A DNA stretch of 64,000 nucleotides from Bacteroidota bacterium (GCA_025354385.1 JANXMZ010000033.1:24110-88109), one strand, 5' to 3'. Counted from the stretch's first letter, positions 11,769-60,887 are shown. A program made the numbers and translations. Notes: generated from the letters alone by a model not told the origin.

Positions 11769-11906
11769 AATATTTATTACTAACGTTCAAAGTCTAATTC
11801 ACTTAATAGCAAAATATTTAAACGCCTAAGCACATATTTAGGATTATTACATGTCGGTAGGAACTTTGATAAATTATCCTATAATTGTAAAAATAAAGTC
11901 CCTATT

Positions 11907-37200: not shown

Positions 37201-40200
37201 CTGGCACTTCATTTAGTACACTTAAAAATCCATATAAATTTTTAAAAGCAGGAACCCATTTGGTGAGTTATACCGCCACTAATTCTAGAGGGTGTAAAGA
37301 CTCGACAGTTAAAAATGTAGTGGTTATTGGCCCTACTTCTCAATACGAATTTATTGGCGATACAATTGGTTGTCAACCACTGACTGTTCAATTTAAAAAC
37401 AGCAGCAAAGATGCCAACTCTTATACATGGAGTTTCAAAGATTCAAGTAACAATACTTATAGCACCAATGCAGATACAAATGTTAGTTACCAATTCAAAA
37501 GTTATGGCAAGTTTTATCCTGTACTTACAGCACGTGGTAAATTTAAGAGTAATGGATTTCCTGTAACCTGTCAAACAGTTTTTCCGGACACTACAATTGC
37601 TGGCTTTCGAGAAGTAACAGTTTATGAGACCCCTCAACCTAATTTTACCTATAGCACTAACTGCAATACAAATACTACTGCATTTACAAATACTTCAAAA
37701 ATGAAGAGTGCTGTTATTGATCGTTTCGAATGGGATTTTGGCGATGGCGACACCTCTATGCAGACCAATCCTATTCATCAATTTACAGATACTGGCCGCT
37801 ATGTTATCATTTTAAAAGCTTATTCTCCCAAAGGTTGTACAGATACCATTATACGAAAAATTGTGATCTCTCCATTTCCTGTTACCCGTTTTTCGTATAA
37901 CTTAACATGTTTAGGTAAAACAACTTTTTTCATCGATTCAACTGTTGCATTTAATGATAGAATTTTTAAATGGAGTTGGGACTTTGGAGACAGTACTTTT
38001 TCCAATTTAAGAAACCCTTCTAAAAAATATTTCAAAGACAGCAGTTACAATGTAAAATTAACGACCACTAATTTAGCAGGCTGCAGTGGCACCCTCACCA
38101 AAACAGTTGTGGTGCATCCTCAACCAAAAGCTAATTTTACTTTTGTGAATACTTGCCTAGAGAAAGCCATAGAATTGAAAGATTCAACCAATTCGAAAGA
38201 CACGCCTTTAAAATTGTTGTGGCGCCTAGGCGATAACAGTACTGATAGCACAGCAATTGTATTAAAAAAATATGCCGGCGCGGGAAATAAAACTGTTAAA
38301 ATAATTTGCACCACAGCCAGTGGTTGTATGGATTCTGTTATTAAAACAATTCATATTTATGCAAAACCTTTATCTGATTTTAGCATTGCTAAAAAAGAAC
38401 AATGTTTGAGAAACAACTTATTTGTTTTTAAAAATAATAGCACCACTGACACTGGAAGTTTAACCTATCATTGGACATTTGGAAATGGTTTAGCAAGTAT
38501 TGCAAAAGATACTACTCTTACCTATGCAGCTATTGGTTCATATACCATTCAATTAATTACAAATACCGCCAATAACTGTAAGGATACTGCTACCGATTCC
38601 GTACTGCTCGACCCACATCCTGCAACAGGTTTTCAGATTAACAACATTGCACAATGTTATAACATCAACCATTTTATTTTTATAGATACTTCACATATTT
38701 CTAAAGGAAGTTTTACGCGCAAGTGGAATACAGGCGACAATCAAAATTACACCGATTCTTTTTTACTTCATCGCTATAACGACTCGGGTAATTACAGTGT
38801 ACAACTTTCATTATTGAGCGATAAAGGTTGTGCAGATACTTTGCAAAAAAATGTTCGTGTTCATCCTCAACCATCGGCACAATTCACCATTGACTCAATT
38901 GCGAAATGTTTAAGAAATAATCTTTTCAAATTCACCAATACTTCAACCACTCCTTATGGCTCTAATACCTATCGCTGGTTTTTTGGCGATGGAGACTCTT
39001 TGCAATCCACAAATGCTACGCACAGCTATATCAGTTTCGATACATTTGCCATCCAACTAATTGCTACCAATAGCAATTTATGCAGAGACACCATTTCTAA
39101 AACGGTTATTGTTCACCCTATGCCAAATGCACAATTTAGTATTGATGATAGCTTACAATGTACCTATGCCAATGCATTTAGTTTCACAAATCGTTCCAAC
39201 ATACAGCTTGGTATGTTAACATATAATTGGAATACTGGAGATGGCAATGGTTATAACAATAAAGACTTGCAACACAGTTACACAAAGTATGGCAATTACA
39301 AGGTTACTTTAACCGCTACCAGCAATCAAAACTGTATCGATTCCACTGTCCATCCGCTTGAAGTTTATGCCATGCCATTGCCAGCTTTTACTATCAATGA
39401 TGCAGGGCAGTGCGAGAAGAACAATAATTTTATTTTTACTGATTCATCAAAGATTGGCTTGGGCACCTATAGCATCTATTGGAATTTGGGAGACAATAGC
39501 AATTCCAATTTAAGCAAAGTTTCAAAAACATATAATACAGCAGGTACTTATCTCATTAAATTAACACTCACCAGCAATCAAGGTTGCAAGGATTCATTGT
39601 CAAAGTCTATTACACTTTTCCCAAAGCCAACGCCTCTTTTTATTATTGATAAAGACAAACAATGTGAGAGAAATAATTTATTCAATTTTACAAATCAATC
39701 GAGCATTATAACAGGTCGTTTTAATAACACGTGGGAATTTGGTGATGGCAAAAAAACGACTTCACAAAATGCCATACATACTTATGATACATTTGGCGTT
39801 TACTTCGTCAAATTGATTACAGAATCTGATTCTGCATGCAGCGATTCTATTACAAAAAATATTACTGTAGAGCCAATGCCTTTGCCTGCTTTTGCAGTAA
39901 ATAAAATCGCCCAATGCTTGAACGACCAATTATTTAAATTTACCGATACCAGCAAAATCGGCTTGGGTACTTATCAAAGACTTTGGACCTTAGGAGAACT
40001 TGATAGCTCTGCATTAGCAAATCCCAATAAACTATTCAAAGCATTTGGCTTGTATACCATTTGGTTAAAATTAACTTCAGATAAAGGATGTTTTGATTCT
40101 ACCAAAATGGATATTGAAGTCTATCCAAAACCTTTACCTTCTTTTTCAATTAATGATTCTACGCAATGTATCAATACCAACCATTTTATTTTTAAAAGCA

Positions 40201-42608
40201 CCTCCAACATACCAAACGGTATGTTAAAAACCTATTGGAATTTTGGCGATGCTATAACCGATAGTTTAAATTTGGTTACCCATAATTACAAGCAATATGG
40301 TATCTACCGAATTCAACTCACTTCTGTATCAGATAAGGGCTGCACAGATAGTACATTCAAACCTGTGGAGGTGTATCCAAAACCAACAAGTGCTATAGTT
40401 GCCAATGACAGTTCTCAATGCGAAAATACCAACTGGTATGTTTTTAACAGCATTATCAGTATACCCTATACAAACATTACTAAACAATACTGGAATCTCG
40501 ATAATATTTATATCCAAGGCAGCTCAGATACATTCAAGCATTATAATAATTATGGTCCTTACATTTCAGGGTTAATAGCCGAGAGCGAATATGGCTGTCG
40601 AGACACTTCGCTATTAAAAATTGATGTATTGCCAATTCCAACTGCAGGATTCTCTATTAACAAAGCCAACCAATGTGAAAACGACAATCAATATATTTTT
40701 ACCAATTCTTCTACTGTGCCTTATGGCAAATTGAGTTACTTATGGAACTTTGGCAATGGAGAAACTGACACTACCCAATCGCCAAAGAAAATATTTACAA
40801 TTTATGATTCACTTGATGTTACTTTAATTGCTCGCACTGTTCCTGGTTGCGAGGATACAGCTATATTACCAGTCGTTATTTATCCTAAACCATTGCCACA
40901 ATTTTCTATCAGCGATTCAACGCAATGTGTAAATGGCAATCTATTAATTTTAACCAATAACAGCAGCATTCCAATTGGAACCTATTCTTCCTTCTGGACA
41001 TTTGGTGATGGCAATTCTTCTAACGCCAAAGACACCTCCTATGCTTACGCACAATTTGGATTGTATAAAGTAAGACTTAACCTTCTATCCGATCAAGGTT
41101 GCCGCGATTCTTTAGATAAGACAATAACTATTTACCCCAAACCCATCCCTGAATTTAGTATTAACGATACAGGGCAATGCCTCAACAATCAGAGTTTTGT
41201 TTTCGAAAATTTAAGTACCATCAGTTACGGACCAATTCACAATGAATGGCGTTTTGGAGATTTTACAAAAGATACTACCACTTCACCCATTCATCAATAT
41301 GCAAGTTATGGTAATTTTATTGTTGAATTAATGACACAATCGCAATATGATTGTAGAGATTCAATTAAAATTCCCGTTCGTGTTTTTGCATCGCCATTCT
41401 CTCAGTTCAGTGTGAATGATACTGACCAATGCGTAAACACACAAATATTTAATTTTACTTCCAATTCTAAGATACCACAAGGCAAAATTATTCAACAAAA
41501 TTGGTTCTTTACAGATAATGGTATAGCAGCAGGTTTAACAGCAAAAAATCATTTCAAAAAACCGGGTTATTACAATGCATTACTAGTTGTAAAATCAGAC
41601 AGTAATTGTATTGATAGTTTTATAAAACCTTTACGGGTGTATCCAAAACCAATTGCAAAATTCATGGTGAATGATTCGGCACAATGTCTATATGAAAATG
41701 CTTATGTATTTACAGAAACTGCCTTTGATTCGATAGGTGTGAGCACCTATGAATGGGATATCAATTCGGAGAAAAAAGTAAGCACAACATCTGTTAATCA
41801 CATCTTTAAAACTGTTGGTTATAAATATGCTAATCTCATTGTTACATCTGTAGTTGGCTGCAAAGACACCACGCAGAGAGATGTATACGTAAAAGCCATG
41901 CCCGACCCTTTGTTCAACAAATTGAAATCATACTATTGCAGAGGCGAAATGGCCTTTAATTTAATTCCAAAGACTTTAGGTGGCACTTTCTTTGGCAAAA
42001 ATATCCTTGCCTCCGATTTTGTTGCTCAACACTTATGGAAAGATACTGTTAAGTATGTTGTTACCGTGAATGGCTGCACCGATAGTAGCTTCCAATATAC
42101 CAATGTGTATCCAAAACCGGAGGTACATTTAGGCAATGATACTCTACTGTGTAAATATGAATATTTTGAAAAAAATATTTCATTTTGGAATTCAACTTAC
42201 AAATGGAATACCTTAAGAGATGATTCCGTTTTCCGTTTTAATAGACCTGGCATATTTTGGGTAACTGTTTCAAATATTTGCGGCACGGCTTCCGACACCA
42301 TTGAAATAACTTTCCGCGATTATAATTGCCATTTCTATATGCCTAATGCCTTCTCACCAAATGGAGATGGCATCAATGATTTTTTCATGCCAATTTTATA
42401 TGGGGTAGATCGTCTTGAATTCGAAATATACAATCGCTGGGGTGAAAAAGTATACATGGGTGATATTAACAGCAAAGGTTGGGACGGCAATTACCAGAAC
42501 GAGCCCGCCCAGCAAGAAGTATACCTATGGCGGGTTGGCTATAGTTTTATGGCTGGCAATCAGAGAGTCAATTTGTATGAGAAGGGTATGTTTACTTTAT
42601 TAAGATAA
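34239..42608 (+). CDS. Giant cell-surface protein: about 25-30 PKD-like Ig repeats with a T9SS type-B (gliding-motility-associated) C-terminal sorting domain
   Basis: - 2789 aa with signal peptide MKLIVHYILLALCCFALNTALGQ.
- Repeating units of about 80-85 aa of the form F..........C....F.F.N.S......Y.W.FGDG..S....P.H.Y...G.Y.V.L......GC.D.
- C-terminus YMPNAFSPNGDGINDFF...EIYNRWGEKVY...GWDGNYQ. Confidence 0.92.
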   Translation: MKLIVHYILLALCCFALNTALGQCSANFTSSKTKYCLHDTSRFTAIGSNLSPSYSWDFDDPYSGSENTDTSNQPKHIFSHTGWFNVSLIVNDGTCKDTITHTILILDLPIAKIKVLSPCLASSTSLASLSSSDTLDQISSYSWQYGDGTTGTGASTLHTYAATGNNTVLLKITTTNGCIDSANKSISIFDKLTLIKSFDSLCQEDEIDFDVNTGTSTAAQWQWDFGDSTTGNISNPLHQYSKSGLFKPQITVTYSNGAKCSAADAVYVYALPDASFYIISDSIQCYKNNQVCIKLNNPNQLLTRRSVAFDDGFVDDFSPLTDSIVCHTYTDAGGSKYTLSISILDNHFCAASYNVKQKVTIHPLLIANFDNKASNGCFGTPVTINNLSNFRPPFVKKFKWTFGDGAVDSSTWSSVYHKYVADGQFSIKLFLKDTYNCIDSMTSSNTIRNTTFVIDAKRDSMNGHCYSRNRLYYSQTPIAGAGVRWYLGSQDSSFGWKTAAYIRSTGTFKSYIRIDKNGCDSITYIDTFVINGPIARYGLVSNQYQCQIKDTVELTNSSITFRNGPLSIHWDAVDIFANNCTIDTKNGNNLNMNCRYSIDSLIFRHMYKPGKENCYYPKIVVSDSLTGCNDSVTINLPLRPPDASQGLPFFRSIGCIGPEQYKTITLDLSRTQPICGREAAWTMWDSTCAANSGNFNAYWNLNSRTHNYGYDNQPCDSNGFVTIGIIIQNGKDSFGRTCRDTAFYHNVLQFQKVDPRFTSNYNPNIHYCKNSTITFFPDTKYQDSIGSMVWDWGDGSSTNGINFSPTPHTFKQSGFYKVVLTITMINGCAAIDSTRIKIGLSENIGFLKGEICLDDTVQLLEHINYWGDAYPWWSNASRAGQNKETLKWDIGDGNGFSVSGGNPFIQYNKIGNYSLRVAIKDSMDCLDTIGLKNAIRVFNIKSNFTVLKDTFVCDQLIAFKSTASVYDSIHHFGHPDDYVASFIWRFKPGTSFSTLKNPYKFLKAGTHLVSYTATNSRGCKDSTVKNVVVIGPTSQYEFIGDTIGCQPLTVQFKNSSKDANSYTWSFKDSSNNTYSTNADTNVSYQFKSYGKFYPVLTARGKFKSNGFPVTCQTVFPDTTIAGFREVTVYETPQPNFTYSTNCNTNTTAFTNTSKMKSAVIDRFEWDFGDGDTSMQTNPIHQFTDTGRYVIILKAYSPKGCTDTIIRKIVISPFPVTRFSYNLTCLGKTTFFIDSTVAFNDRIFKWSWDFGDSTFSNLRNPSKKYFKDSSYNVKLTTTNLAGCSGTLTKTVVVHPQPKANFTFVNTCLEKAIELKDSTNSKDTPLKLLWRLGDNSTDSTAIVLKKYAGAGNKTVKIICTTASGCMDSVIKTIHIYAKPLSDFSIAKKEQCLRNNLFVFKNNSTTDTGSLTYHWTFGNGLASIAKDTTLTYAAIGSYTIQLITNTANNCKDTATDSVLLDPHPATGFQINNIAQCYNINHFIFIDTSHISKGSFTRKWNTGDNQNYTDSFLLHRYNDSGNYSVQLSLLSDKGCADTLQKNVRVHPQPSAQFTIDSIAKCLRNNLFKFTNTSTTPYGSNTYRWFFGDGDSLQSTNATHSYISFDTFAIQLIATNSNLCRDTISKTVIVHPMPNAQFSIDDSLQCTYANAFSFTNRSNIQLGMLTYNWNTGDGNGYNNKDLQHSYTKYGNYKVTLTATSNQNCIDSTVHPLEVYAMPLPAFTINDAGQCEKNNNFIFTDSSKIGLGTYSIYWNLGDNSNSNLSKVSKTYNTAGTYLIKLTLTSNQGCKDSLSKSITLFPKPTPLFIIDKDKQCERNNLFNFTNQSSIITGRFNNTWEFGDGKKTTSQNAIHTYDTFGVYFVKLITESDSACSDSITKNITVEPMPLPAFAVNKIAQCLNDQLFKFTDTSKIGLGTYQRLWTLGELDSSALANPNKLFKAFGLYTIWLKLTSDKGCFDSTKMDIEVYPKPLPSFSINDSTQCINTNHFIFKSTSNIPNGMLKTYWNFGDAITDSLNLVTHNYKQYGIYRIQLTSVSDKGCTDSTFKPVEVYPKPTSAIVANDSSQCENTNWYVFNSIISIPYTNITKQYWNLDNIYIQGSSDTFKHYNNYGPYISGLIAESEYGCRDTSLLKIDVLPIPTAGFSINKANQCENDNQYIFTNSSTVPYGKLSYLWNFGNGETDTTQSPKKIFTIYDSLDVTLIARTVPGCEDTAILPVVIYPKPLPQFSISDSTQCVNGNLLILTNNSSIPIGTYSSFWTFGDGNSSNAKDTSYAYAQFGLYKVRLNLLSDQGCRDSLDKTITIYPKPIPEFSINDTGQCLNNQSFVFENLSTISYGPIHNEWRFGDFTKDTTTSPIHQYASYGNFIVELMTQSQYDCRDSIKIPVRVFASPFSQFSVNDTDQCVNTQIFNFTSNSKIPQGKIIQQNWFFTDNGIAAGLTAKNHFKKPGYYNALLVVKSDSNCIDSFIKPLRVYPKPIAKFMVNDSAQCLYENAYVFTETAFDSIGVSTYEWDINSEKKVSTTSVNHIFKTVGYKYANLIVTSVVGCKDTTQRDVYVKAMPDPLFNKLKSYYCRGEMAFNLIPKTLGGTFFGKNILASDFVAQHLWKDTVKYVVTVNGCTDSSFQYTNVYPKPEVHLGNDTLLCKYEYFEKNISFWNSTYKWNTLRDDSVFRFNRPGIFWVTVSNICGTASDTIEITFRDYNCHFYMPNAFSPNGDGINDFFMPILYGVDRLEFEIYNRWGEKVYMGDINSKGWDGNYQNEPAQQEVYLWRVGYSFMAGNQRVNLYEKGMFTLLR

Positions 42609-44005: not shown

Positions 44006-47000
44006 CTAGCGCCTGCCTAAAGCAGCCAAGCCAACCGGATCCTTAATCACTTCCACCCATTTGCCCGGTATGCGGGCGTTGATGGCATGGTTGTACATGG
44101 CCTCTGTATAAACGGTTGGCAAGTAAAATTTACCCAAATAGGTAGCATTTAATTTTACTGTAAATACTTTGGTGTGTTTAGACATTAAATCATAATAACT
44201 GTATATTCTATCATCGCGAATATCTTGATAACGCGAATCATTAACGCCTGAATTTTGTCCATCCATTCTGTTGTTGTGTATCTCCCAACCAGATGCAAAT
44301 ATTTGGTTCAATGCCATTTCATAATAGTTGCCTTTATTGCCCGGGTTTGTAATGCTTATCTCTGCGATAAAATCTGTTCCTTGCACAATTTTATCGGGTT
44401 GTATTATCTGCCCTTTAATAGTTTTATAAACGATATTCATACTCAGTTCATTCGATACAAGGGTTTGGTCGCCTAACAACGGAATACCTTCTGTCATTAA
44501 CTTTACGTACAACGTAGTATTGCCCTTATTGGCAATTTTTACATTACTATTACTTTTTATTTCCTTATCGTTATAACTAAATTTACTAATGGCTTTGCGA
44601 CTTTGCTCTTGTATTGGGGCACCATTGTTTAAAGAATAACTATAACTAAAACCGTTGCCATTTTTATCTGCACCAGTATATTTACAAATGGCCAACAAAT
44701 TATAAGCAGTTTCCTGCGTGCTCATCCATTCGCTGTTGTTCAATTTTTGAATAATATTTTTAGAAAGTTGAGCAGCTTTGGCATCCTCTTTCATTAATGT
44801 GAGTGTTTCCAAAATCATGGCCTCATCGCGCATATCAGAACCATAGCTGAAGGCGAGTTCTTTGTAAGGCTCTATTCTAATACTTAACTTCCCTATTAAC
44901 TGTTTGGCAACTTCCGTTTGACCCACCAACTGATAAGCAGCAGCCAAGCGCCATTTAGAAGCTTCCCCTAAACCTCGCTCTTCACGAATTCTGTTCATAG
45001 CGCCCAACTCTGCATTGCCAGAGAGGGCCAATACGAATAAGCGATAAGTTTGTGTAAGTTGATAAGATTCATCACCATGCGGTTGATTGTAAACTGAGTT
45101 TTTCATATCCCAATTCCTTGCTTCATTTATTTGATATTTGAGCCATTTGTTTTTCATATTAAAAGGCAAACTATAGCCCATTTTTTCTGCTTCTATCATA
45201 AAATGTCCAGCATAATTACTTCCCCATTCACTTTCATAAGATTCTCCTGGCCAATAAGAAAAACCACCATTAGACGTTTGGAACAATTGTAATCTTTTTA
45301 TACCTGCTTTTATATTTTTTGCGATCTGATCCTTCTGCGAAGCTTTTAAATCCATTAAATTACTCACGAACAATTGCGGAAAAACAGAAGACGTTGTTTG
45401 TTCGATACAACCATGCGGATATTTTATTAAATAATCCAATCTTTTATCCAATCCAAGCGAAGGAATATTAGATACCTCCACCACAAATTTATTGGTACCA
45501 CTTAAACCAATGAAATTAATTTGCTGTGATACAGATTGGCCTGCAGCCATTGTAAATTCTTTGGCATCGGTAACTTTCGGATTCGCAATTCTTACTTCTA
45601 CTTCTATTTCCTGTGTAGCCCTTTCTTTACCACTTGTTGCCACAATTTTTATTTTAGCTACACCAATTCTTGGCGCTACATTCAATTTAAAATTCAAAAC
45701 CTCATCCCCTGTTTTTCTAAAAGTTATGCTTTGCTTTACCACACCATCTACGCTCAATAAATCATTCACTTCAATTTCTACTTTCACATCTTTAACATGG
45801 CTCTCCATTGCAAATACATCCACAGGCAAGTAAATACTTTCCGAAGGACCCAATACTCTCGGCAATGTGGCCAGTACCATCAAAGGTTTTTTAACCGCTA
45901 TTGTTTTTTCTGTGCTGCCATAAGCGCCATTATTTTCTGCCACTACCATCACTCTTACCGAACCTACATAATTGGGAATTTCTATGCTGTGATTTTTTTG
46001 CTGACCTGCACCTAAAGTATACGGTCCCATAAACTTTACCATGGGTTTAAAACGATTAGCTTTTACGCCCTTTCCTGCTAGGCCATCGCCATCGCCACCT
46101 ACACTTAACAATTTATCCAACCTGCCTGCATACGCTCCAATAACTTGATCGTACATGTCCCAAGTTTTTACACCCAATGCTTCTTTCGCATAAAATGACT
46201 GCCATGGTTGTGGAGTTTTAAATCTTGTTAAATCTAACAAACCATCATCTACAATGGCCAAAGTATAAGTCATGGGTTTTCCCAATTCCTCTTTTACCAA
46301 AACATTCACTTTGCTTTCGGGTTTCCAAACATCGGCCATTACCATTAGAGGCTTTAAATGAGTTTTAGGATCATCTATGTTTAATGAAATAACACCATAC
46401 ATGCGAATTGGTAGATCATTTTTTGTATTGGCATGAGGTTGTAATAGGGTAACATGCACATAGGCATTCGGACTCATATCTGAACTTGCAACAAAAGTTG
46501 TTTTGGTTTCTCCTTTAATGGTATTCACCCAGAATTTTTTGATGACTTTCGAACCTGTTTCTATGCTTATCAAAGCCTTTCCATCTGCCGGAGAAGGGAA
46601 TGACAATTTAATATTTTCACCTACAGTATATTGTGTTTTATCGCAAGAAAAATTAAGCATAGTAGAATTATCGCGGTTGGTATTATTTCCTCTGCTCCAA
46701 TAAGGCCAGTCTACTTTAATTATTTTTCCTGTTTGATGACCCCCTTTTAAATCTGTAAGTGTAATTAAATATCTGCCGTAATTATTATTATCCATTCTAA
46801 AACGATAATTATTTTTACCGTTTACAATTTTCAACAAAGTATCTTTTAAAACAATTGCACTTGAGCGAGACACGTATGAGGCCAAATCTTCTTCATCATT
46901 TTCGTACCACCAACGCCACTGTAATTTATAAATTTTCAATTGCACCTGTTCCATATTAACGGCCTTTCCATTGGCATCTACACTGGCAATTTCAAACAAA

Positions 47001-49648
47001 TGATTGACATCTGTAGACAAACCTTCGTATTCATTTTTTGTTTCTGGTGTTCTTAATCCCACATAATTTTTATATGGTGAATAGGGTGCGCTAAAACGAT
47101 CGATACTAAAATCGCCACCCTCCTCGAATACACGCGTTACAAAATTAGCCCTCAATAAACCCGGTGCATTTTTTCCAGCCGAAAATACCGATCGAATAGA
47201 GGCTTCTCCATCTTGATTTAGCGAACCATCGAACACGGTCATTTCATCTCCATAATAAGTACGCAATGGCGAATCAAACACATAATTTTTACATCCATCA
47301 AATTTTGTTTCTGTTTGACTGAGTGAAACATTCACTACCGTTTTTAAATTGCGAGCAATTGCGCCATGCAACCATTGAACACGCAACTTACCGACCGTAT
47401 CGTTTTCATGTTCTGAAATTTTCGAATTTTTTAAATCAAAATAAATTTTTAAACGATTGGGTTTTACCGTTTCAATCTTAATAGTATGCGAGAATGATTG
47501 ACTTCCTACACGCGCTACTGCCATATAATTTCCCGTCATAGCTTCGTCTACTGTAACGGTTCTAAAATCGTATAAGCCATTTATATTTTCCGATTTTGTT
47601 TGTTGATAAACAACGGTACCATCAGGATTTTGCAACTCAAATTTTACAGGATAGTTAGCAGGCAATCTTTTTTCTTTATCTTCCAAAATAAAATTTAAAT
47701 ACAGGGAATCGCCAGGGCGCCAAACACCGCGTTCGCCATAAATAAACCCTTTAATACCCTTTTGCACTATTTCTCCTTCTATATCATATTTGCTCAAAGA
47801 ATTGGCATGACCGTCTTGTAGTTTTAAGTACCCTTTTTGGGCACCAAAACTAGCCACCATCAAAAATGGTTTCTGTTTCAAATGTGTTTCCATCATCCCA
47901 TTTTTATCTGTTACACCTTTTGCAATAAGCTGCTTGGTATAATCGTAATAAGCTACTTCACAATTTGCCAAAGGTTGCGCGGTAATCATATTGGTTATAA
48001 AGGCATGTGCTTTTTTATCTTCATCCAATTTATATATCATGCCAATATCTGAGGCCAATATATTGCGACTTTCGGCCTTGCCTTCATAATATTCATCTGT
48101 GCAAGGTGAATATTGATCATTGTAATAGTCATCCCAGTTTTCATAACCTCCATCAAAACTATAACTATTCCATTGATCCTCGTTCCAATTTTTATCTGTA
48201 TGAAAAAAATCCATAATAGAAGATTGTTGATTCTCCAAATTTTCACTACTTGTTGCAGTCTCTTCCTCATCATCACAATTGCATAAGGCGTATGATTTAT
48301 TAAATTTAATACTAACCCTATAAATAGCACCTTGCTCAGGTTTAATCAAATGAGCCAAATCAATTACATGTGCATTCCATTGTTTCAAATTTTTTGATTT
48401 GTCGTAAGTTAGATCAATTTTTTTCTCAACTATCACTTTACCAACCCTGGTCAATCCATCCTCCCCATTCAAATTATTAACTTGCAAAAACTGGTGTACA
48501 TTGTTTTGAAAAATTTTAATAATACGCACATCTACTGCTTTTAAACTAATGGCTTTAAACGGAAATATGAGTCCGCCTGAATTCGGCAAAATACTACCAT
48601 CGCCAAACAATCTAACCCTTGGCAAAGGCGCTTCAAAATTAACGGCTTCAGAAAATGCTTCATTCATATGAAACCCCTTTTGACTTTTAATACCAGTGCT
48701 TACTTTAATAGTTTTAACCCCTTCTAATCTCAGTCCAGGATATACTTTCACCACATTACCCTCTACAGAATAGGTTAAATTATCGGCCCCCTCTAATGTT
48801 ACAATTCCCTTCAAATTTTGATTATAAGCAATGGGTTCCGTAAAATTTAAGACCATGGTTTGATCATCTTCATCTATTACTTTCACCTCCGAAACAGAAA
48901 AATCTCCCATGGCAGAAATTTCTATTTTTTGATTGCCGCTAGACAGGGCCTGTATGGGCTTACCATTCCAATTAACAAGCACTTCACCCTTATTCATGCC
49001 GCGTTTAATACTGTCTATATAAAAATAGAAATCGTTGTTATTATACGAATTGCTCCAATTAATCTTAGCTTCTTTTTGATTGACCAATGCAGAAATGGTT
49101 TTTTTTATAAGCGCAGTGTCAGCAAAATCTGAAGTGGTAATTCTACCAGTTAATTTTCGCCATTCCGTATTATTATCATCATAAGTTCTTAATCCATCTA
49201 TCACCACATTCATATTTTGAGGATAAGAAGCAAACTGAAATTGAAATTCTTCAAAATCATTTTTTACGATGGCTACTTTTTCCAACTGAAATGTAGCGGT
49301 GTAAAATTGATTGGCAGGCAACGGCCTATCGGGAATAAACTCAATAACCCTCTCATTTACCCATTGGCTTCTCCCTTTAATTTCTGGTTCGAATTCAAAG
49401 ATATCTTTCAGTAAATTTGAATCGGGCAATAATTTTTTATTATCATTGTTCGCTCCTTTAAACGGCTCTGCAAGTTCTATGCGAATAGCTTGTTGGCTGC
49501 TAATATTGCCTGATGTATAGCCAGAAACATATTTGGCGTATTCTGGGTTTACAGTTATCATTTGCGGTCTTTTGTTAAGACAAGAGTTCAAAAAGATGAG
49601 CACTCCGGCTAAAAAAAGAAGCATAAGAAGTTTGATTTGATGTATCAT
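44006..49648 (-). CDS. Bacterial alpha-2-macroglobulin family lipoprotein (YfhM-like) with an intact thioester motif
   Basis: 1880 aa. Lipobox LIFLNSC. The thioester CIEQ in YPHGCIEQTTSSVFPQL is encoded at 45398-45409. The repeated MG-domain architecture and size fit bacterial A2M. Confidence 0.9.
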   Translation of the reverse strand: MIHQIKLLMLLFLAGVLIFLNSCLNKRPQMITVNPEYAKYVSGYTSGNISSQQAIRIELAEPFKGANNDNKKLLPDSNLLKDIFEFEPEIKGRSQWVNERVIEFIPDRPLPANQFYTATFQLEKVAIVKNDFEEFQFQFASYPQNMNVVIDGLRTYDDNNTEWRKLTGRITTSDFADTALIKKTISALVNQKEAKINWSNSYNNNDFYFYIDSIKRGMNKGEVLVNWNGKPIQALSSGNQKIEISAMGDFSVSEVKVIDEDDQTMVLNFTEPIAYNQNLKGIVTLEGADNLTYSVEGNVVKVYPGLRLEGVKTIKVSTGIKSQKGFHMNEAFSEAVNFEAPLPRVRLFGDGSILPNSGGLIFPFKAISLKAVDVRIIKIFQNNVHQFLQVNNLNGEDGLTRVGKVIVEKKIDLTYDKSKNLKQWNAHVIDLAHLIKPEQGAIYRVSIKFNKSYALCNCDDEEETATSSENLENQQSSIMDFFHTDKNWNEDQWNSYSFDGGYENWDDYYNDQYSPCTDEYYEGKAESRNILASDIGMIYKLDEDKKAHAFITNMITAQPLANCEVAYYDYTKQLIAKGVTDKNGMMETHLKQKPFLMVASFGAQKGYLKLQDGHANSLSKYDIEGEIVQKGIKGFIYGERGVWRPGDSLYLNFILEDKEKRLPANYPVKFELQNPDGTVVYQQTKSENINGLYDFRTVTVDEAMTGNYMAVARVGSQSFSHTIKIETVKPNRLKIYFDLKNSKISEHENDTVGKLRVQWLHGAIARNLKTVVNVSLSQTETKFDGCKNYVFDSPLRTYYGDEMTVFDGSLNQDGEASIRSVFSAGKNAPGLLRANFVTRVFEEGGDFSIDRFSAPYSPYKNYVGLRTPETKNEYEGLSTDVNHLFEIASVDANGKAVNMEQVQLKIYKLQWRWWYENDEEDLASYVSRSSAIVLKDTLLKIVNGKNNYRFRMDNNNYGRYLITLTDLKGGHQTGKIIKVDWPYWSRGNNTNRDNSTMLNFSCDKTQYTVGENIKLSFPSPADGKALISIETGSKVIKKFWVNTIKGETKTTFVASSDMSPNAYVHVTLLQPHANTKNDLPIRMYGVISLNIDDPKTHLKPLMVMADVWKPESKVNVLVKEELGKPMTYTLAIVDDGLLDLTRFKTPQPWQSFYAKEALGVKTWDMYDQVIGAYAGRLDKLLSVGGDGDGLAGKGVKANRFKPMVKFMGPYTLGAGQQKNHSIEIPNYVGSVRVMVVAENNGAYGSTEKTIAVKKPLMVLATLPRVLGPSESIYLPVDVFAMESHVKDVKVEIEVNDLLSVDGVVKQSITFRKTGDEVLNFKLNVAPRIGVAKIKIVATSGKERATQEIEVEVRIANPKVTDAKEFTMAAGQSVSQQINFIGLSGTNKFVVEVSNIPSLGLDKRLDYLIKYPHGCIEQTTSSVFPQLFVSNLMDLKASQKDQIAKNIKAGIKRLQLFQTSNGGFSYWPGESYESEWGSNYAGHFMIEAEKMGYSLPFNMKNKWLKYQINEARNWDMKNSVYNQPHGDESYQLTQTYRLFVLALSGNAELGAMNRIREERGLGEASKWRLAAAYQLVGQTEVAKQLIGKLSIRIEPYKELAFSYGSDMRDEAMILETLTLMKEDAKAAQLSKNIIQKLNNSEWMSTQETAYNLLAICKYTGADKNGNGFSYSYSLNNGAPIQEQSRKAISKFSYNDKEIKSNSNVKIANKGNTTLYVKLMTEGIPLLGDQTLVSNELSMNIVYKTIKGQIIQPDKIVQGTDFIAEISITNPGNKGNYYEMALNQIFASGWEIHNNRMDGQNSGVNDSRYQDIRDDRIYSYYDLMSKHTKVFTVKLNATYLGKFYLPTVYTEAMYNHAINARIPGKWVEVIKDPVGLAALGRR

Positions 49649-53668: not shown

Positions 53669-54898
53669 CTAATGATGTATCACTTCCCCCTCCATTTTAC
53701 TTACAGCAACGGTTGCAATTGCATTGCCCACCACATTGGTGGCTGTTCTACCCATGTCTAAAAACTGATCTATTGGCAACAATAAAGCCAAACCCGCTTC
53801 GGGAATATTAAAGCCCGAAATGGTAGCGGCAATAACGACCAAAGAGGCTCGCGGCACACCGGCTATGCCCTTACTTGTTATCATCAACACTAAGAGCATT
53901 GTTATTTGCTGACTGATGCTTAAATCAACTCCATAAGCTTGTGCTATTAACAAAGAACCAAAAGTCATGTACATCATGCTGCCATCCAAATTGAATGAAT
54001 AACCCAATGGCAAAACAAAACTTGTAATTTTTTCTTTGATACCAAAACGATCGAGTTGATTCAATAATTTAGGATAAGCCGACTCGCTGCTTGCTGTGGC
54101 AAATGCCAACATCAAAGGTTCCTTAATATGACTCAACAAACTCCACACTTTGTTTTTTATAAATGCATAGCCAAAACTTAGTAAGACCACCCATAATAGT
54201 AGCAACCCAAAATAAAACATACCGATTAGTTTGCTATATTGCACCAGTATTCCTATGCCTTTTTCCGCTACCACAACAGATATAGAACTGAATACGGCCA
54301 ATGGCGCAATCCACATAATCATATTGGTTAATTTCAACATGGCATGAGCCAAGCTATCCATCAATTTTACTAAAGGCTCACCTCTCTCGCCTATGCCTGC
54401 TAAAGCCAAACCAAAAAAGATAGAGAACACTACTATTTGCAAAACCATTTTATGACTGGATAGGGCCACAAAAATATTTTCAGGAATTAATTGATCTACA
54501 AAATGTGCAATGGTAAATCCTTCAGTGGTTGGAATACTGCTGATGGATTGTGTTGGCAGCGACCCCGCAAACTGATCGCCAGGGCGCAATATATTCACCA
54601 ATATTAAACCCAATGTTAATGAAATTAGACTCGCAAAAATAAACCAACCAATGGTTTTAACACCCATGCGACCAACTGTTTTAGCATCGCCTATGCCTGC
54701 CACACCAACTATGAGGGTACTCAATACCAATGGACCAATAATCAATTTAATCAATTTTAAAAAAATGATAGAACCAAAAGCTGCAATTCCTGTATAGGTT
54801 TTAATAGTGGCCGCATCGGCATTCAAATTCACAAAGGTTCCAACTGCTATTCCTAGTAGCAATCCCAACATGATTAAATGGGTTAATTTTATTTTCAT
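53669..54898 (-). CDS. Dicarboxylate/amino-acid:cation symporter (DAACS/GltP-DctA family)
   Basis: 409 aa polytopic protein with SSESAYP, GIAGVP and DMGRTATNVVGN motifs typical of the SDF family. Confidence 0.9.
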   Translation of the reverse strand: MKIKLTHLIMLGLLLGIAVGTFVNLNADAATIKTYTGIAAFGSIIFLKLIKLIIGPLVLSTLIVGVAGIGDAKTVGRMGVKTIGWFIFASLISLTLGLILVNILRPGDQFAGSLPTQSISSIPTTEGFTIAHFVDQLIPENIFVALSSHKMVLQIVVFSIFFGLALAGIGERGEPLVKLMDSLAHAMLKLTNMIMWIAPLAVFSSISVVVAEKGIGILVQYSKLIGMFYFGLLLLWVVLLSFGYAFIKNKVWSLLSHIKEPLMLAFATASSESAYPKLLNQLDRFGIKEKITSFVLPLGYSFNLDGSMMYMTFGSLLIAQAYGVDLSISQQITMLLVLMITSKGIAGVPRASLVVIAATISGFNIPEAGLALLLPIDQFLDMGRTATNVVGNAIATVAVSKMEGEVIHH

Positions 54899-55347
54899 TC
54901 TTTTAAATTTTCTAAATCATTAATATCTCTTGGTCTTGCTGAAGCAGCCTTTGCTTTTTTTAAATCGTTGATGTGGATTACACGAACATCAAAGCCTTCT
55001 TCTTTATAAATACTAGAATTTTGATGTGCCCGTTCAAAAGACAAACCAAGAATATCGGTCATTAAGTCAATCCTCGAAGGGGGTAACCCAAATCTAAATA
55101 CCTCCTTTTTGGGATTGAGAAACTCTTCTAGGGTCATATCAAACACAGGCATTTGAAACATCTCAAAAGCCTTTACAATTTTTTTGTAATTATCTTCCGT
55201 TTTGTTGACCCAAATGTCCATATCACCTGTCGTTCTTGAATATCCATGAATGATTACAGAGTAACCACCTACAAGTATATATTCTACATTTGAATGATTT
55301 AGACTTTCAATAAATTCTTGGAAATCAGTATTAAAGAGATTACTCAT
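54895..55347 (-). CDS. Minimal nucleotidyltransferase-fold protein (AbiEii/DUF6036-like)
   Basis: ILVGGYSVIIHGYSRTTGDMDIWV (GG...G..R.T.D.D NTase motif) and C-terminal KAASARPRDINDLENL. ATGA overlap with the symporter gene and an 8-nt overlap with the upstream 65-aa ORF. Confidence 0.7.
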   Translation of the reverse strand: MSNLFNTDFQEFIESLNHSNVEYILVGGYSVIIHGYSRTTGDMDIWVNKTEDNYKKIVKAFEMFQMPVFDMTLEEFLNPKKEVFRFGLPPSRIDLMTDILGLSFERAHQNSSIYKEEGFDVRVIHINDLKKAKAASARPRDINDLENLKE

Positions 55348-55537
55348 TTCTAATTAAGATTGAAAAAACGGTTCTATCAACTTTAGGTGGATGGTTGACA
55401 TCATAACCATAAGCAATACTGTTTAAATAAGCCGCAGCATTTAATCTTTCGGCAACAGTTTTACTTTGCCAATATTTAAAATCATTGGGCTCCTCCTCCT
55501 TTTTAAAGGAACTAAAAACAGTTTTATCCATTTTCAT
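55340..55537 (-). CDS. Small hypothetical protein (65 aa), translationally coupled partner of the mini-NTase
   Basis: MKMDKTVFSSFKKEEEPNDFKYWQSKTVAERLNAAAYL... The stop overlaps the NTase start (ATGAGTAA). Confidence 0.55.
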   Translation of the reverse strand: MKMDKTVFSSFKKEEEPNDFKYWQSKTVAERLNAAAYLNSIAYGYDVNHPPKVDRTVFSILIRNE

Positions 55538-57025: not shown

Positions 57026-57880
57026 TTAAGAACAAGTTCTCAATGCAATAAATATCAAATATATTACTACCCATAACCACCTGTACTGGCTGTGCTCCTC
57101 ACTCAAACCATTAAAAGCCTTGTTATTTGATTTAATCAATTGCTTATGCTCTGGTTCACAATCTACGTATAAAAGATTATTGCTAACGTGATTCACAAAC
57201 TTAATATCCGTTTTTTGTAACCGTACAGTAAGGTTAATAAGCTCTACTACAATACAAGTTCTGTGATATTCCAATTCATCGGGCAACCAGTTGAGATAGC
57301 TATAAAAATCAGCATCCTCTAAAAACTCTAGTCTGGAAATACTAGGTTGATTATAATTGTCCTTATCAAGTTCATTTATAAAATCAGCCATGTGTCGCAA
57401 ATTATCATCAAGCAATCCAAAAACATGATCAGCCCCAACATATTTTATGGCCTCTAAAAATTTAAGAATTTCGTGAGGCCAATGGTAATGATTATTTTTT
57501 AGATTTATTTTTAATGCTGTTAATTCAGCATCTATGACAATGTCCTTAAAATTATCTGTAGTTTCCGGTTCATCAAAAACTACCTTTAAATTCTTTACGG
57601 GATTGGGTGCCTTTTTCGGTTGTTCACAAAAAGAAAGTATTTCCTTGTTTTTATACAATTGTAGGTGGGACTCTAAATCATCCAAATTTTTCAGTGTATC
57701 TATCTGTCCAATTATTTCATCTTTGGTATATTCCCTTTTATTAATATCAATGGTTGTAGAGCCGCTGAGATTAAACTCCGCCAACAATTTCTTCCTCAAA
57801 CGAATAATTTCCTGATGGCTCAATTGAATAGCATCTATATCAAAACTTTCTAAAATGTGTAGTGGTGACTTGTAACTCAA
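57026..57880 (-). CDS. Hypothetical tail-anchored membrane protein, third gene of the Hsp70-like operon
   Basis: 284 aa. TTG start 11 nt after the Hsp70-like stop. The only hydrophobic segment is at the extreme C-terminus (YRWLWVVIYLIFIALRTCS). The N-terminus SPLHILESFDIDAIQLSHQEIIRLRKKLLAEFNL is loosely J-domain-helix-like but has no HPD. Confidence 0.65.
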   Translation of the reverse strand: MSYKSPLHILESFDIDAIQLSHQEIIRLRKKLLAEFNLSGSTTIDINKREYTKDEIIGQIDTLKNLDDLESHLQLYKNKEILSFCEQPKKAPNPVKNLKVVFDEPETTDNFKDIVIDAELTALKINLKNNHYHWPHEILKFLEAIKYVGADHVFGLLDDNLRHMADFINELDKDNYNQPSISRLEFLEDADFYSYLNWLPDELEYHRTCIVVELINLTVRLQKTDIKFVNHVSNNLLYVDCEPEHKQLIKSNNKAFNGLSEEHSQYRWLWVVIYLIFIALRTCS

Positions 57881-57891
57881 ATTTTTACTAA

Positions 57892-60402
57892 TTATGACCC
57901 CAACCCAGTACCTTTAATTTTTTCAATTTCACTTCTCTCCTCTTTCAACTCAGCCCACATTTCTTTGCAGATAGATAACAACTCATTGTGATTACCTTTT
58001 TCCATGGCCTTATCACCTTTATCGAAGAGTTTCTTTACCTTGTTAAAATTATTGTAGTGACTGGCATCTAAGTCGCGGTGATGTAAAAAATTGCTAATTA
58101 AAAGTGAAGGGGTGGCATATACTAATTTACCATAAAACTTATCCAACTTTAAATAATAGGCATTCAATTGAAAATGATTGGTAGACTTTACAACATCACT
58201 ATTGGACAATTTCATGGCAATATATTCTTCCTTTAAGTTTCCGGGAACATCATTGTGCATTTCGATTACAAAGTCTAGCACATTTTTTATATTTTGAATT
58301 TTTTCTTTCTTTTCAAACACTGGACTGTTGTTCAATCCAATATTATAATATTGTGTAGCCAATCGCCTTTTTTTCTCATCCAGTTGATAACGACTTTCAT
58401 CCATATCGGTTTCTTTTAATTTGCCAACTTCTTTTATTAAAGTTTGAACCGATTCTAGTAAATCATTTAAAAATGCTGCCTTTTCATAATCATCTGTATC
58501 TAACGTTTTAGTAATAGATGCGTTAATTTCATTCTGCAGAGTCTTCAATTCATCGCGCAGTTTGGATAAGCTCACATATTTTACTTTTGGATTAAATACT
58601 TGCTGAAAAGTTTGATTGGTAAAATTAAGAATGGCATTTACTTTAATCTCCCTGCTTTCGGAAATTTCCAAGGTAATTTCAACATCCGAACCATATACCA
58701 AATCACTACTAATCATGTTTCCATTTACTTCTATTACACCAATTACTTTATTGGCACTTGGATGCACCGCTTGATTGCCTTCTAAAATATTAATAATGAC
58801 ACTATCATCTGACCCTTTTTTGATGGTTCTAGACAACTCTTTGAAAATGGTTTTCTTCAAAGGCAATAGGCTGTTTCTCGAAAAAATGACTTCGCTAAGG
58901 GTGGTATTGTTATTTGTATCATCTACTTCAATGCAGATATCTTCTGGCAGTGTTTGACCGTAAAGAGAAAATAAACCTTGTGTTATTTCTATCACTTGCG
59001 TGTTGAGCGAAATTTCATTCCCCGTTGCATCCAATAATTTAATGCTAAAAAAATTGACGGTATTCGGTTTCAACATTAAGAATTCACCTATTTTAACCGT
59101 TGCGTTTTTTAAACCACTGTCATAACCACCATCGTGTCGAACAATTCTATAGCGGCAATTGTCTGGCAAATTTTCAAAAACAGCAGTTATATACTCTTCC
59201 ATATCCTTGGTTGTTTTATTATAGGCTGTTTTTATTGTTAAACTCTCTGCATTATTTTCCAAAAACGGTCTATTTTCTTGCTCACTTTGCAACAACCTTA
59301 GTTTTGAACCCGCGTAATATGCTGCACCAACGGCAACTGCTGTTGTTGGATCTGCAGAATAATTAACGGGTATACCAGTACTTTCTTCAACTCTTTTTCT
59401 TACATAAGGAATTAGAGTACTTCCGCCAATCAAAATAATATTCTTTATGTCTTCTTGCTGAATGCTATTGCGTTCAAATATCTTTTGAATAAAGGCAATT
59501 GTATATTGAATCTTATCTTCTATTAGGGCTTCAAAATCTGTTCTGCTAATTTCAAAATAAATTTCTTTGGTCTCACTCCCCTCTGCTTCAAAAGTAAATT
59601 CCACCTCCACATTGTCCTTGAAACTTAATTCCTTTTTCGCTTCTTCTGCTTTTAACAACAACACATAATACAATTTCTCGTATGGCCCATTGCGCTGATT
59701 AATGAGACGCACTAGATCTGTTTTCCCAGTTATCTGTTCCAAGCGAGGCAGAATTAAATGGCGAACCATCAGCTGATCAAAATCCACACCTCCCAAAAAA
59801 TTATCACCTTCGTGATCTATCACACGCATCTCATCCTCATCAATCGTAATAAGAGCAACATCAAAAGTACCACCACCCAAATCGTACACCAACCATTTTC
59901 CGAAGCTTTCTAAATCGTTCATTTTTTCATTAAAAAAAGCCAAAGATGCTGCTATGGGCTCTTGCAATAAAACCACTTCTTCAAATCCTGCTTCTAATCC
60001 TGCCTCTTTGGTGGCATTGCATTGCACGGTATCAAAACTTGCAGGTATGGTAACCACTATGCTCCTTGGCTTTTCGCCCGAAGGAATAAAATTCTTGAGT
60101 TCCTTCAATACAAGCGCTGATAAATTTGCTGGTGAATAATAACTCATGAGCGAAGGAATGAGATATTTTTCTGAAGTGCCCATCTTTCTTTTGAAAGATG
60201 AAAAAACATTCAAAGGGTCTTTAACAATATATTCTCTGGCCTTATCGCCAATGAGTATTCTTTCGCCCCTAAACCCAACGCAACTTGGCAAGGTTTCTTT
60301 AAAGCCAATGGGGTTTTTGTATACTTCCACCTTGCCTTTGTCAAATTTTGCAATTAAGGAATTAGTAGTTCCTAAATCAATGCCGTAATCAATTGTTTTC
60401 AT
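57892..60402 (-). CDS. Atypical Hsp70-family protein (836 aa): canonical actin-like NBD, an inserted domain, an SBD-beta-like region and a long helical C-terminus
   Basis: NBD motifs GIDLGTTNS, VVTIPASF, DLGGGTFDV and IILIGGSTLIPYV. After residue ~375 there is a ~120-aa segment with no DnaK counterpart. LPEDICIEVDD...INILEGNQAVHPSANKVIG...EITLEISESREIKV then resembles SBD-beta. Confidence 0.88.
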   Translation of the reverse strand: MKTIDYGIDLGTTNSLIAKFDKGKVEVYKNPIGFKETLPSCVGFRGERILIGDKAREYIVKDPLNVFSSFKRKMGTSEKYLIPSLMSYYSPANLSALVLKELKNFIPSGEKPRSIVVTIPASFDTVQCNATKEAGLEAGFEEVVLLQEPIAASLAFFNEKMNDLESFGKWLVYDLGGGTFDVALITIDEDEMRVIDHEGDNFLGGVDFDQLMVRHLILPRLEQITGKTDLVRLINQRNGPYEKLYYVLLLKAEEAKKELSFKDNVEVEFTFEAEGSETKEIYFEISRTDFEALIEDKIQYTIAFIQKIFERNSIQQEDIKNIILIGGSTLIPYVRKRVEESTGIPVNYSADPTTAVAVGAAYYAGSKLRLLQSEQENRPFLENNAESLTIKTAYNKTTKDMEEYITAVFENLPDNCRYRIVRHDGGYDSGLKNATVKIGEFLMLKPNTVNFFSIKLLDATGNEISLNTQVIEITQGLFSLYGQTLPEDICIEVDDTNNNTTLSEVIFSRNSLLPLKKTIFKELSRTIKKGSDDSVIINILEGNQAVHPSANKVIGVIEVNGNMISSDLVYGSDVEITLEISESREIKVNAILNFTNQTFQQVFNPKVKYVSLSKLRDELKTLQNEINASITKTLDTDDYEKAAFLNDLLESVQTLIKEVGKLKETDMDESRYQLDEKKRRLATQYYNIGLNNSPVFEKKEKIQNIKNVLDFVIEMHNDVPGNLKEEYIAMKLSNSDVVKSTNHFQLNAYYLKLDKFYGKLVYATPSLLISNFLHHRDLDASHYNNFNKVKKLFDKGDKAMEKGNHNELLSICKEMWAELKEERSEIEKIKGTGLGS

Positions 60403-60711
60403 TTAGTTTTTATTGGCCTCCACCATAACGATGCCTTGTTGAACAATGATGTGATTGTGGTAAATAACAGGTTTTACAATTTGTGTAATGCGCATATCTT
60501 CTCCAATTTCTCCAACAATATTGGCCACTACATCCGTTCGGGTATCGTTGTATTTTTCGCCAATCGGCAAACTGTATTCATAGCCAATGCCCTGCCACTC
60601 CAACTTTATCCTATGAATAATTCTTTGAATACTCTCATCCGTATTGTCCTTTTTTAATTTCATTTCGAGCAGGGCAAATTGGTTAATAATTGATATGGTT
60701 TCCTTTATCAT
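60403..60711 (-). CDS. Truncated GrpE-like protein (102 aa; four-helix-bundle end plus beta-domain, no long N-terminal coiled coil)
   Basis: The stop abuts the Hsp70-like start (TAAATG). GIGYEYSLPIGEKYNDTRTDVVANIVGEIGEDMRITQIVKPVIYHNHIIVQQGIVMVEA follows the GrpE C-terminal pattern (G.E.I...G..FDP..H.A......V..V...GY......R.A.V.V). This call rests on alignment by eye. Confidence 0.6.
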   Translation of the reverse strand: MIKETISIINQFALLEMKLKKDNTDESIQRIIHRIKLEWQGIGYEYSLPIGEKYNDTRTDVVANIVGEIGEDMRITQIVKPVIYHNHIIVQQGIVMVEANKN

Positions 60712-60887
60712 AATCCAATTTCAAACATACAAATTGAAATGGTAATAAAAAAGCCTTTCAACCCCATAAAACTTTATTTTATTGGCATAAAGCTCCAATG
60801 AATCTCATCTTGTTATCAACCCCATTGCAATAATTTCGCTCAAATTGCTTTGTTTTGAAGTTGAATTTCAAGTTTAACCAAGCAAAT

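Follow-up and report, generated by a model that had tools for sequence, protein, structure and literature searches.

Does the three-gene locus at positions 57026-60711 of a 64,000-nucleotide stretch of DNA from a Bacteroidota bacterium (GCA_025354385.1, JANXMZ010000033.1:24110-88109; the whole stretch is referred to here as the window) encode a chaperone machine of its own, distinct from the housekeeping DnaK system? The locus specifies a protein of 102 amino acids (aa), referred to here as mini-GrpE, an 836-aa Hsp70, and a 284-aa partner, P3. On balance, we favor the reading that these proteins form a self-contained, specialized Hsp70 machine that is conserved in Bacteroidota and separate from housekeeping DnaK, with mini-GrpE acting in nucleotide exchange and P3 in membrane recruitment. 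Calls of open reading frames (ORFs) place the three genes as follows:

60403-60711, minus strand: mini-GrpE gene, 102 aa, ATG start
57892-60402, minus strand: Hsp70 gene, 836 aa, ATG start
57026-57880, minus strand: P3 gene, 284 aa, TTG start

These coordinates confirm the layout described in a first-pass annotation of the window, namely three minus-strand ORFs packed end to end, with TAAATG at 60400-60405 and a second gap of 11 nucleotides (nt). The TAA of the 102-aa gene abuts the ATG of the 836-aa gene (60405-60400; gap 0 nt), and the spacing between the Hsp70 stop codon and the TTG of P3 is exactly 11 nt (57881-57891). A consensus scan found no terminator in either intergenic junction of the triad, and a sigma-70 promoter scan was uninformative. 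The TTG start of P3 is credible because the N-terminus it yields (M-S-Y-K-S-P-L; pattern M-x-Y-x-S-P) lines up residue by residue with the N-termini of all homologs. A non-ATG start of this kind could hold P3 at a sub-stoichiometric level. The P3 genes of two relatives also have non-ATG starts (locus L088, at 10526; locus L089, at 10532), and their translations begin with L. Upstream of the triad, TATGTTTG lies at 60722-60729 on the minus strand, 10 nt before the ATG of the 102-aa gene, and is a candidate for the Bacteroidota -7 promoter motif, TAnnTTTG; if it is used, the transcript would be almost leaderless.

The conservation of this arrangement was assessed with a pattern scan in which each GTDB species was represented by one genome and the C-terminal half of the Hsp70 was the query. 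At least 236 species matched, and neighborhood statistics were derived from 82 loci. The best 80 loci are all labeled Bacteroidota, except for one metagenome-assembled genome (MAG) labeled 'Bosea' and one unclassified MAG. In 71 loci, the mini-GrpE gene is the immediate upstream neighbor of the Hsp70 gene. When only loci with a complete Hsp70 ORF are counted (72), 67 have it directly upstream in the same orientation, and two of the five exceptions are interrupted by contig ends. Gaps between these two genes are mostly -11 to +15 nt, and the genes often overlap. P3 homologs adjoin the Hsp70 gene in 58 loci (71 ORFs), often as two or three tandem copies. In orientation, the P3 genes divide about evenly: one half follow the Hsp70 gene on its own strand, where an overlap of 8 or 29 nt with the Hsp70 stop is common, and the other half are convergent, directly after the Hsp70 stop.

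All-against-all clustering of the ORFs recovered three families, in 79, 58, and 58 loci, with the next best family present in only 6. No fourth co-conserved neighbor gene was found in the 82 loci, and the flanks vary. The three genes are thus the sole co-conserved families at these loci, in agreement with the earlier suggestion that they form a unit, and the arrangement is more than chance because it recurs in dozens of genomes. A divergent lineage with 48% GC also keeps the triad (L084, 406-4841; L085, 56-4057). In these two loci, the GrpE-like protein carries an acidic low-complexity tail of about 130 aa, and a very hydrophobic 136-aa ORF comes after the triad. Elsewhere, in one MAG labeled Bosea whose locus looks like Bacteroidota, an HtpG (Hsp90)-like 619-aa ORF is found directly upstream of the mini-GrpE gene (L018, 2524-4383).

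The 836-aa protein contains all three Hsp70 signatures of the nucleotide-binding domain (NBD) that had been noted before (GIDLGTTNS, DLGGGTFDV, and IGGSTLIPYV), and residues D9, K71, E148, D174, and T179 are invariant in 119 of 119 family members. Pfam HSP70 (PF00012) matches with E=9e-70 over aa 7-403 only, and phmmer against the PDB matches DnaK with E=9e-52 over aa 6-382. Scores against the NCBIfam equivalogs are far lower than required, with 234.6 bits against a cut-off of 648 and 233.8 bits against 822.55 for DnaK (NF001413/TIGR02350), and 210.8 bits against 708.55 for HscA (TIGR01991). The protein is therefore neither DnaK nor HscA, which upholds the proposal of a specialized machine distinct from housekeeping DnaK. 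Its NBD is 30% identical to that of E. coli HscC. At least 120 homologs of near-constant length (827-865 aa) were found in Spirosoma, Niastella, Chitinophaga, Longitalea, and many Bacteroidota MAGs, and where these are named, they carry only the label 'Hsp70 family protein'. The gene dnaK itself has been reported in 98.9% of bacteria.

To describe the architecture of the Hsp70, we built an AlphaFold model from 19 family sequences (mean predicted local distance difference test, pLDDT, 80; predicted template modeling score, pTM, 0.47). The model comprises the NBD (1-366), a disordered stretch (372-386), a beta domain (389-475), and the beta part of the substrate-binding domain (SBD-beta, 488-603), followed by nine helices (612-817) and a disordered tail (822-836). 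The corresponding features in the window are:

59305-60402, minus strand: Hsp70 NBD (aa 1-366), catalytic set intact, from Pfam HSP70 and the model
58942-59304, minus strand: insertion between NBD and SBD-beta (aa 367-487), from AlphaFold secondary structure, pLDDT, and conservation
58585-58941, minus strand: SBD-beta-like domain (aa 488-606), from the motifs GQxLPxDIxxExDD, FxRNxxLPxKK, LEG, and SESR and from Foldseek
57940-58584, minus strand: extended helical lid and C-terminal helical bundle, nine helices (aa 607-821), from AlphaFold and Foldseek
57895-57939, minus strand: disordered C-terminal tail ending GTG[LI] (aa 822-836), from pLDDT <50 and the tail motif

The domain boundaries of the AlphaFold model show that the insertion of about 120 aa described at first pass is real. 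It consists of the disordered stretch, which is variable, and then a conserved beta domain of about 90 aa that carries the motifs EEY and YRI[TV]RxDGG[FY]DSG and has no sequence match in the PDB. An origin of the insertion as an internal duplicate of SBD-beta was considered and rejected (hhalign P=0.5). HMMER did not detect the SBD-beta, and a profile search of the PDB with the C-terminal half gave no DnaK match; a weak BLASTP segment against the HscC SBD has the expected register. Foldseek aligned the model over 640-800 columns to full-length DnaK/BiP, that is, past the NBD, and at the level of fold the model therefore predicts both an SBD-beta and a lid. The lid is about 100 aa longer than normal. 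Accordingly, the C-terminal region of about 230 aa singled out earlier is indeed helical but not a wholly new feature, since it is the Hsp70 lid extended by about 100 aa, and DnaK has a lid. The GTG[LI] end, which follows a disordered linker, is family-invariant among the tails tabulated for 119 members and is seen as TGIG in the divergent L084/L085 lineage; docking peptides typically have this pattern, and the tail may serve as one. Overall, the 836-aa protein is a complete Hsp70, with NBD, SBD-beta, and lid, and with its ATPase site residues intact.

The 102-aa protein had been aligned by eye with the C-terminal half of GrpE. It has no match in Pfam (E<=1), NCBIfam, PADLOC, or PHROGs; a search of the PDB with the family profile recovered no GrpE, and hhalign against E. 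coli GrpE gave nothing. Sub-threshold matches to Pfam GrpE (PF01025) occur in 3 of 94 family members, with a best E of 0.017. An HMMER scan of 1.84 billion representatives returned 209 clusters at 50% identity, nearly all of 95-130 aa, and no canonical-length GrpE was present among the top 150 of these clusters.

An AlphaFold model built from 94 family sequences out of this search (pLDDT 91.3; pTM 0.81) places two helices, at aa 3-22 and aa 26-41, ahead of a beta domain with six strands, in which the invariant polar residues E52, R58, D60, K80, and Q91 fall. In a Foldseek search of the PDB with this model, ranks 1-12 were all GrpE/GrpEL1 chains, from five organisms (human 9bls/9blt, Thermus 3a6m, Geobacillus 4ani, Mycobacterium 8gb3, and E. 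coli 1dkg/9a81), with prob 0.44-1.00; for ranks 1-10, prob was 0.98-1.00 and TMq 0.46-0.61. With 92-111 aligned columns, these matches cover the whole 102-aa query, at 10-19% identity. There is a sharp drop to prob <=0.1 at the first non-GrpE fold, and the control library BFVD, which contains no GrpE, gave no match above prob 0.11. The alignment by eye is thus borne out in fold by AlphaFold and Foldseek, though not by sequence methods: the predicted structure folds like the C-terminal half of GrpE, with bundle helices and beta domain. The protein begins at the bundle helices, and the long N-terminal helix of GrpE is absent. On the strength of this modeled fold, mini-GrpE is a putative nucleotide-exchange factor.

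The surface with which Hsp70s contact J-domains is altered in this family. In DnaK, R167 pairs with Asp35 of the J-domain HPD motif, as seen in structure 5NRO and in dnaK R167 genetics. In the window Hsp70, the residues corresponding to DnaK Arg167, Asn170, and Thr173 are Val, Gln, and Ile. The R167 position is V, L, I, or A in at least 116 of 119 family members, and Arg is outside the four commonest residues there; the N170 position is Gln in all 119, and the T173 position is Ile in 117. Arg167 is retained by both E. coli DnaK and HscC. No J-domain ORF lies within 6 kb of the triad in the 82 loci, and the HPD tripeptide, which J-domain proteins (PF00226) carry between helices II and III and which was previously noted as missing from the 284-aa protein, is absent from window P3 and from all of its approximately 70 homologs. 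Because the known DnaK-DnaJ structure and genetics put R167 against HPD, the absence of HPD from P3 together with the loss of Arg167 from the Hsp70 is the strongest hint that the trigger of this Hsp70 may have been re-wired.

P3 is not a recognizable member of an unrelated family, as it has no match in Pfam, NCBIfam, PADLOC, PHROGs, or the PDB. Comparison with DjlB, DjlC, YbeR, and YbeU by hidden Markov model and hhalign likewise showed no similarity. Two parts of the protein stand out:

57761-57880, minus strand: conserved N-terminal segment of P3 (aa 1-40), YxSPLxxL ... LRKKLLAEFxLSG, from alignments
57038-57085, minus strand: C-terminal hydrophobic anchor of P3 (aa 266-281), YRWLWVVIYLIFIALR, from direct reading and homolog alignment

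Members of the P3 family have a conserved cytoplasmic N-domain of about 265-270 aa without a signal peptide and a single hydrophobic helix at about 275-310, followed by a family-conserved Cys. Some members, window P3 among them, have no extension beyond the helix; in others, one of up to 300 aa follows. In the window protein, the hydrophobic stretch is short (W268-L280, 13 residues flanked by two Arg). The aligned position is a clear transmembrane (TM) helix in more than 50 homologs, and a membrane anchor is predicted for window P3 for that reason. The P3 homolog of L089 (10532-12415, 627 aa) carries a TonB_C domain after the TM helix and extension (Pfam E=4e-15), and the topology of P3 is therefore N-in, C-out. 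TonB_C is found in 1 of 46 long P3 homologs and is absent in window P3, and it is a lineage-specific addition. The other long extensions have no match in Pfam, while a shared extension gave weak matches in the PDB to designed Ig-like proteins (E=0.008).

The best-conserved part of P3 is its extreme N-terminus, where Y3, S5, and P6 are nearly invariant. This region resembles J-domain helices I and II in pattern only. Using hhalign against a small J-domain profile, we repeatedly found the J register, with helix I, helix II, and 'NLS' under 'HPD', at P=0.15-0.25 and prob <1%. The J-like character proposed in the first-pass annotation is thus recovered as a register but is statistically unsupported, and we treat it as a lead, not a finding.

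These data are consistent with the following mechanism. Mini-GrpE, probably dimeric through its two bundle helices, would wedge its beta domain into the cleft between lobes IB and IIB of the NBD, and this insertion would speed ADP release. P3 would localize the Hsp70 to the inner membrane on the cytoplasmic side and stand in for the J-protein, probably triggering the Hsp70 via a non-canonical contact that involves neither HPD nor Arg167. The target of the conformational work done by the ATP cycle would be either P3 itself or polypeptides at P3, and in lineages with a long P3 this work would be linked to the envelope.

Several observations weigh against this mechanism. With respect to mini-GrpE, the Foldseek E-values are only 5e-3 to 2e-2, sequence-profile methods give no link between the 102-aa family and GrpE, and the missing long helix is the part that supplies GrpE contacts and dimer stability; a predicted GrpE-like fold alone is, moreover, no proof of exchange activity. 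Three loci are without mini-GrpE. The pTM of 0.47 leaves the domain arrangement of the Hsp70 model uncertain. With respect to P3, we infer its role from gene linkage alone, and about 10 loci with adequate flanks have no adjacent P3 gene. The C-terminal TM helix claimed at first pass holds for the homologs, whereas the short stretch of window P3 was not called in a Kyte-Doolittle scan at a threshold of 1.6. The P3 homolog of L084 (405 aa) has no TM helix, and membrane tethering of P3 is perhaps not universal.

The main rival explanation is that P3 is a dedicated client, as IscU is for HscA and sigma-32 is for DnaK, and not a co-chaperone. Here, the Hsp70 would bind a conserved P3 peptide and control the folding, tail-anchored insertion, or activity of P3, with mini-GrpE resetting the cycle. 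The nearly invariant, hydrophobic N-terminus of P3 (SPLxxL) does resemble a short recognition peptide, its similarity to J-domains is not significant, and P3 varies in copy number and length, as a client set might. Hsp70s are also known to assist tail-anchored insertion, for example that of DjlC (Mayer 2021 review). An Hsp70 normally still needs an ATPase trigger, however, and no other is linked to the locus; the loss of R167 beside an HPD-less partner fits a remodeled co-chaperone contact, and a client would also be missing from the roughly 10 loci without an adjacent P3 gene. We consider this explanation possible but doubtful.

A bolder version of the co-chaperone reading would make the triad a fourth prokaryotic Hsp70 class that operates without a J-domain. 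A degenerate J-like element, or a new element, of a bitopic protein would trigger an Hsp70 re-wired at R167 (to V), a minimal GrpE would reset it, and the cycle would perform mechanical work on the membrane partner; the lineages with periplasmic or TonB_C parts would then represent an ATP-powered trans-envelope transducer or a membrane-protein extraction motor. We regard this full version as improbable.

It is more improbable still that the 102-aa protein is GrpE-like in fold only and acts as an NBD-locking inhibitor, an assembly factor, or an adaptor, while the Hsp70 borrows canonical GrpE and DnaJ. The absence of the long GrpE helix, the lack of significant sequence similarity to GrpE, and the modest Foldseek E-values would all agree with such a role, and canonical co-chaperones are on hand in at least one genome, where a DnaJ+DnaJ_C gene sits at the edge of the locus, about 8 kb from the module (L089). 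Yet all confident structural matches are GrpE, and they extend over the whole protein; the gene is strictly adjacent to or overlaps the Hsp70 gene across the family, and the loss of R167 argues against the use of a canonical J-domain.

The genomic surroundings of the triad bear on the last alternative, a role in conflict. The flanking genes in the window are housekeeping genes: on the downstream side, radA follows after 100 nt in the same orientation; on the upstream side, there is a divergent sugar nucleotidyltransferase gene; and tpiA, a HAD hydrolase gene, and gpsA are nearby. In L088, a relative with 73% identity, this housekeeping synteny is kept on both sides of the triad. No relatives of the triad were found on viral contigs, and PADLOC gave no match for the 102-aa protein or P3, its only match for the Hsp70 being AbiEi at E=0.022 within the lid. 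Because of the kept synteny, the absence of viral-contig relatives, and the lack of a PADLOC match, we conclude that the triad belongs to the chromosome and is inherited vertically as a module, rather than forming an island. The first-pass annotation named conflict as one option. In the version considered here, the triad would serve in anti-phage defense or another conflict, the Hsp70 being the switch and the diversifying P3 proteins the sensors or effectors. This idea can draw on the expansion of P3 paralogs with variable C-terminal parts and on the Hsp70, GrpE, and DnaJ modules of GAP1-N2 GTPase conflict systems in actinobacteria and firmicutes (Kaur et al. 2020, PMC7159879), but it is highly unlikely given these flanks and null searches, the absence of any linked nuclease, protease, pore-toxin, or GTPase gene, and a divergence of the Hsp70 that tracks taxonomy.

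Other genes around the triad were also recorded. In L088, a vWA/DUF1194 gene (11391-12527, minus strand) that is not in the window lies between P3 and radA. In the window, a DUF6036 nucleotidyltransferase gene (150 aa, Pfam E=2e-7) overlaps an upstream 65-aa ORF. This pair (54895-55537, minus strand), located between radA and an SDF transporter gene and missing at the equivalent position in L088, looks like an inserted toxin-antitoxin-type cassette. Farther away in the window are two giant genes: one (34239-42608, plus strand) specifies a PKD-repeat protein of 2789 aa that bears a CHU_C type IX secretion signal, and the other (44006-49648, minus strand) a bacterial alpha-2-macroglobulin of 1880 aa.

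Comparison with described systems places the triad closest to HscC and DjlC/DjlB of E. coli, an analogy drawn at first pass that fits even in gene layout. Both are cases of a non-housekeeping Hsp70 beside its own membrane partner, and in both the partner has a cytoplasmic N-terminal functional domain and a C-terminal anchor. The E. coli djlC gene is convergent with hscC, and djlB and djlC are tail-anchored paralogs, just as about half of the P3 genes are convergent and P3 is also duplicated. Other features place the triad Hsp70 outside the HscC subfamily. HscC is a protein of 556 aa whose lid is shortened, whose NBD and SBD are not separated by an insertion, and which retains Arg167. The triad Hsp70 has 836 aa, with a longer lid, the insertion, and no Arg167; the two NBDs are 30% identical. 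DjlB and DjlC carry a recognizable J-domain (HPE in E. coli), whereas P3 has none and shows no detectable similarity to either protein. Finally, the HscC locus encodes no dedicated exchange factor, while the triad has mini-GrpE. In E. coli K-12 (L083, 676000-688000), djlB and djlC are each preceded by a DUF1266 gene (ybeR and ybeU) and each accompanied by a Sel1-repeat gene (ybeQ and ybeT).

With DnaK-DnaJ-GrpE, the triad shares an Hsp70 composed of NBD, SBD-beta, and lid, a GrpE-fold partner, and identical catalytic residues. It differs by its sub-cut-off DnaK score, the insertion of about 120 aa, the longer lid, a half-size GrpE without the long helix, the lack of a J-domain partner, and the replacement of R167, N170, and T173. 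HscA-HscB-IscU is likewise a specialized Hsp70 encoded with its own partners, possibly for a single dedicated client. HscA works with the J-protein HscB and without an exchange factor; the triad is the reverse, and no Fe-S genes are linked to it.

The mitochondrial import motor consists of mtHsp70, Mge1, Tim44, Pam18, and the HPD-less J-like protein Pam16. Common to this motor and the triad would be a membrane-tethered Hsp70, a GrpE-type factor, and an HPD-less partner with a J-like region. The triad, in contrast, has no linked true J-protein or translocon, P3 has no known homology to Tim44 or Pam16, and with respect to export the bacterial cytoplasm lies on the cis side. In the GAP1-N2 systems, too, a non-housekeeping Hsp70 and a GrpE of its own share a gene neighborhood, but these systems are GTPase-centered and contain a full-size GrpE as well as DnaJ-domain fusions; the triad is linked to no such component. 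Myxococcus SglK was considered as a described member of the family and rejected, being a close DnaK paralog of a different family.

A search of the literature found no description of the triad. One review recognizes only three prokaryotic Hsp70 types, DnaK, HscA, and HscC (PMC8215388), and the remaining prokaryotic Hsp70s are called unexplored in reviews. The triad looks like an undescribed specialized chaperone machine, and it provides a clean, compact, and widespread example with its own partners, present in at least 236 species genomes. Two of its three families currently lack any annotation, and mini-GrpE is, to our knowledge, the smallest GrpE-type protein. If the favored reading is true, the triad would show which half of GrpE suffices for nucleotide exchange and how triggering of an Hsp70 is possible in the absence of HPD and Arg167, and it would point to an unrecognized membrane-linked process in Bacteroidota.

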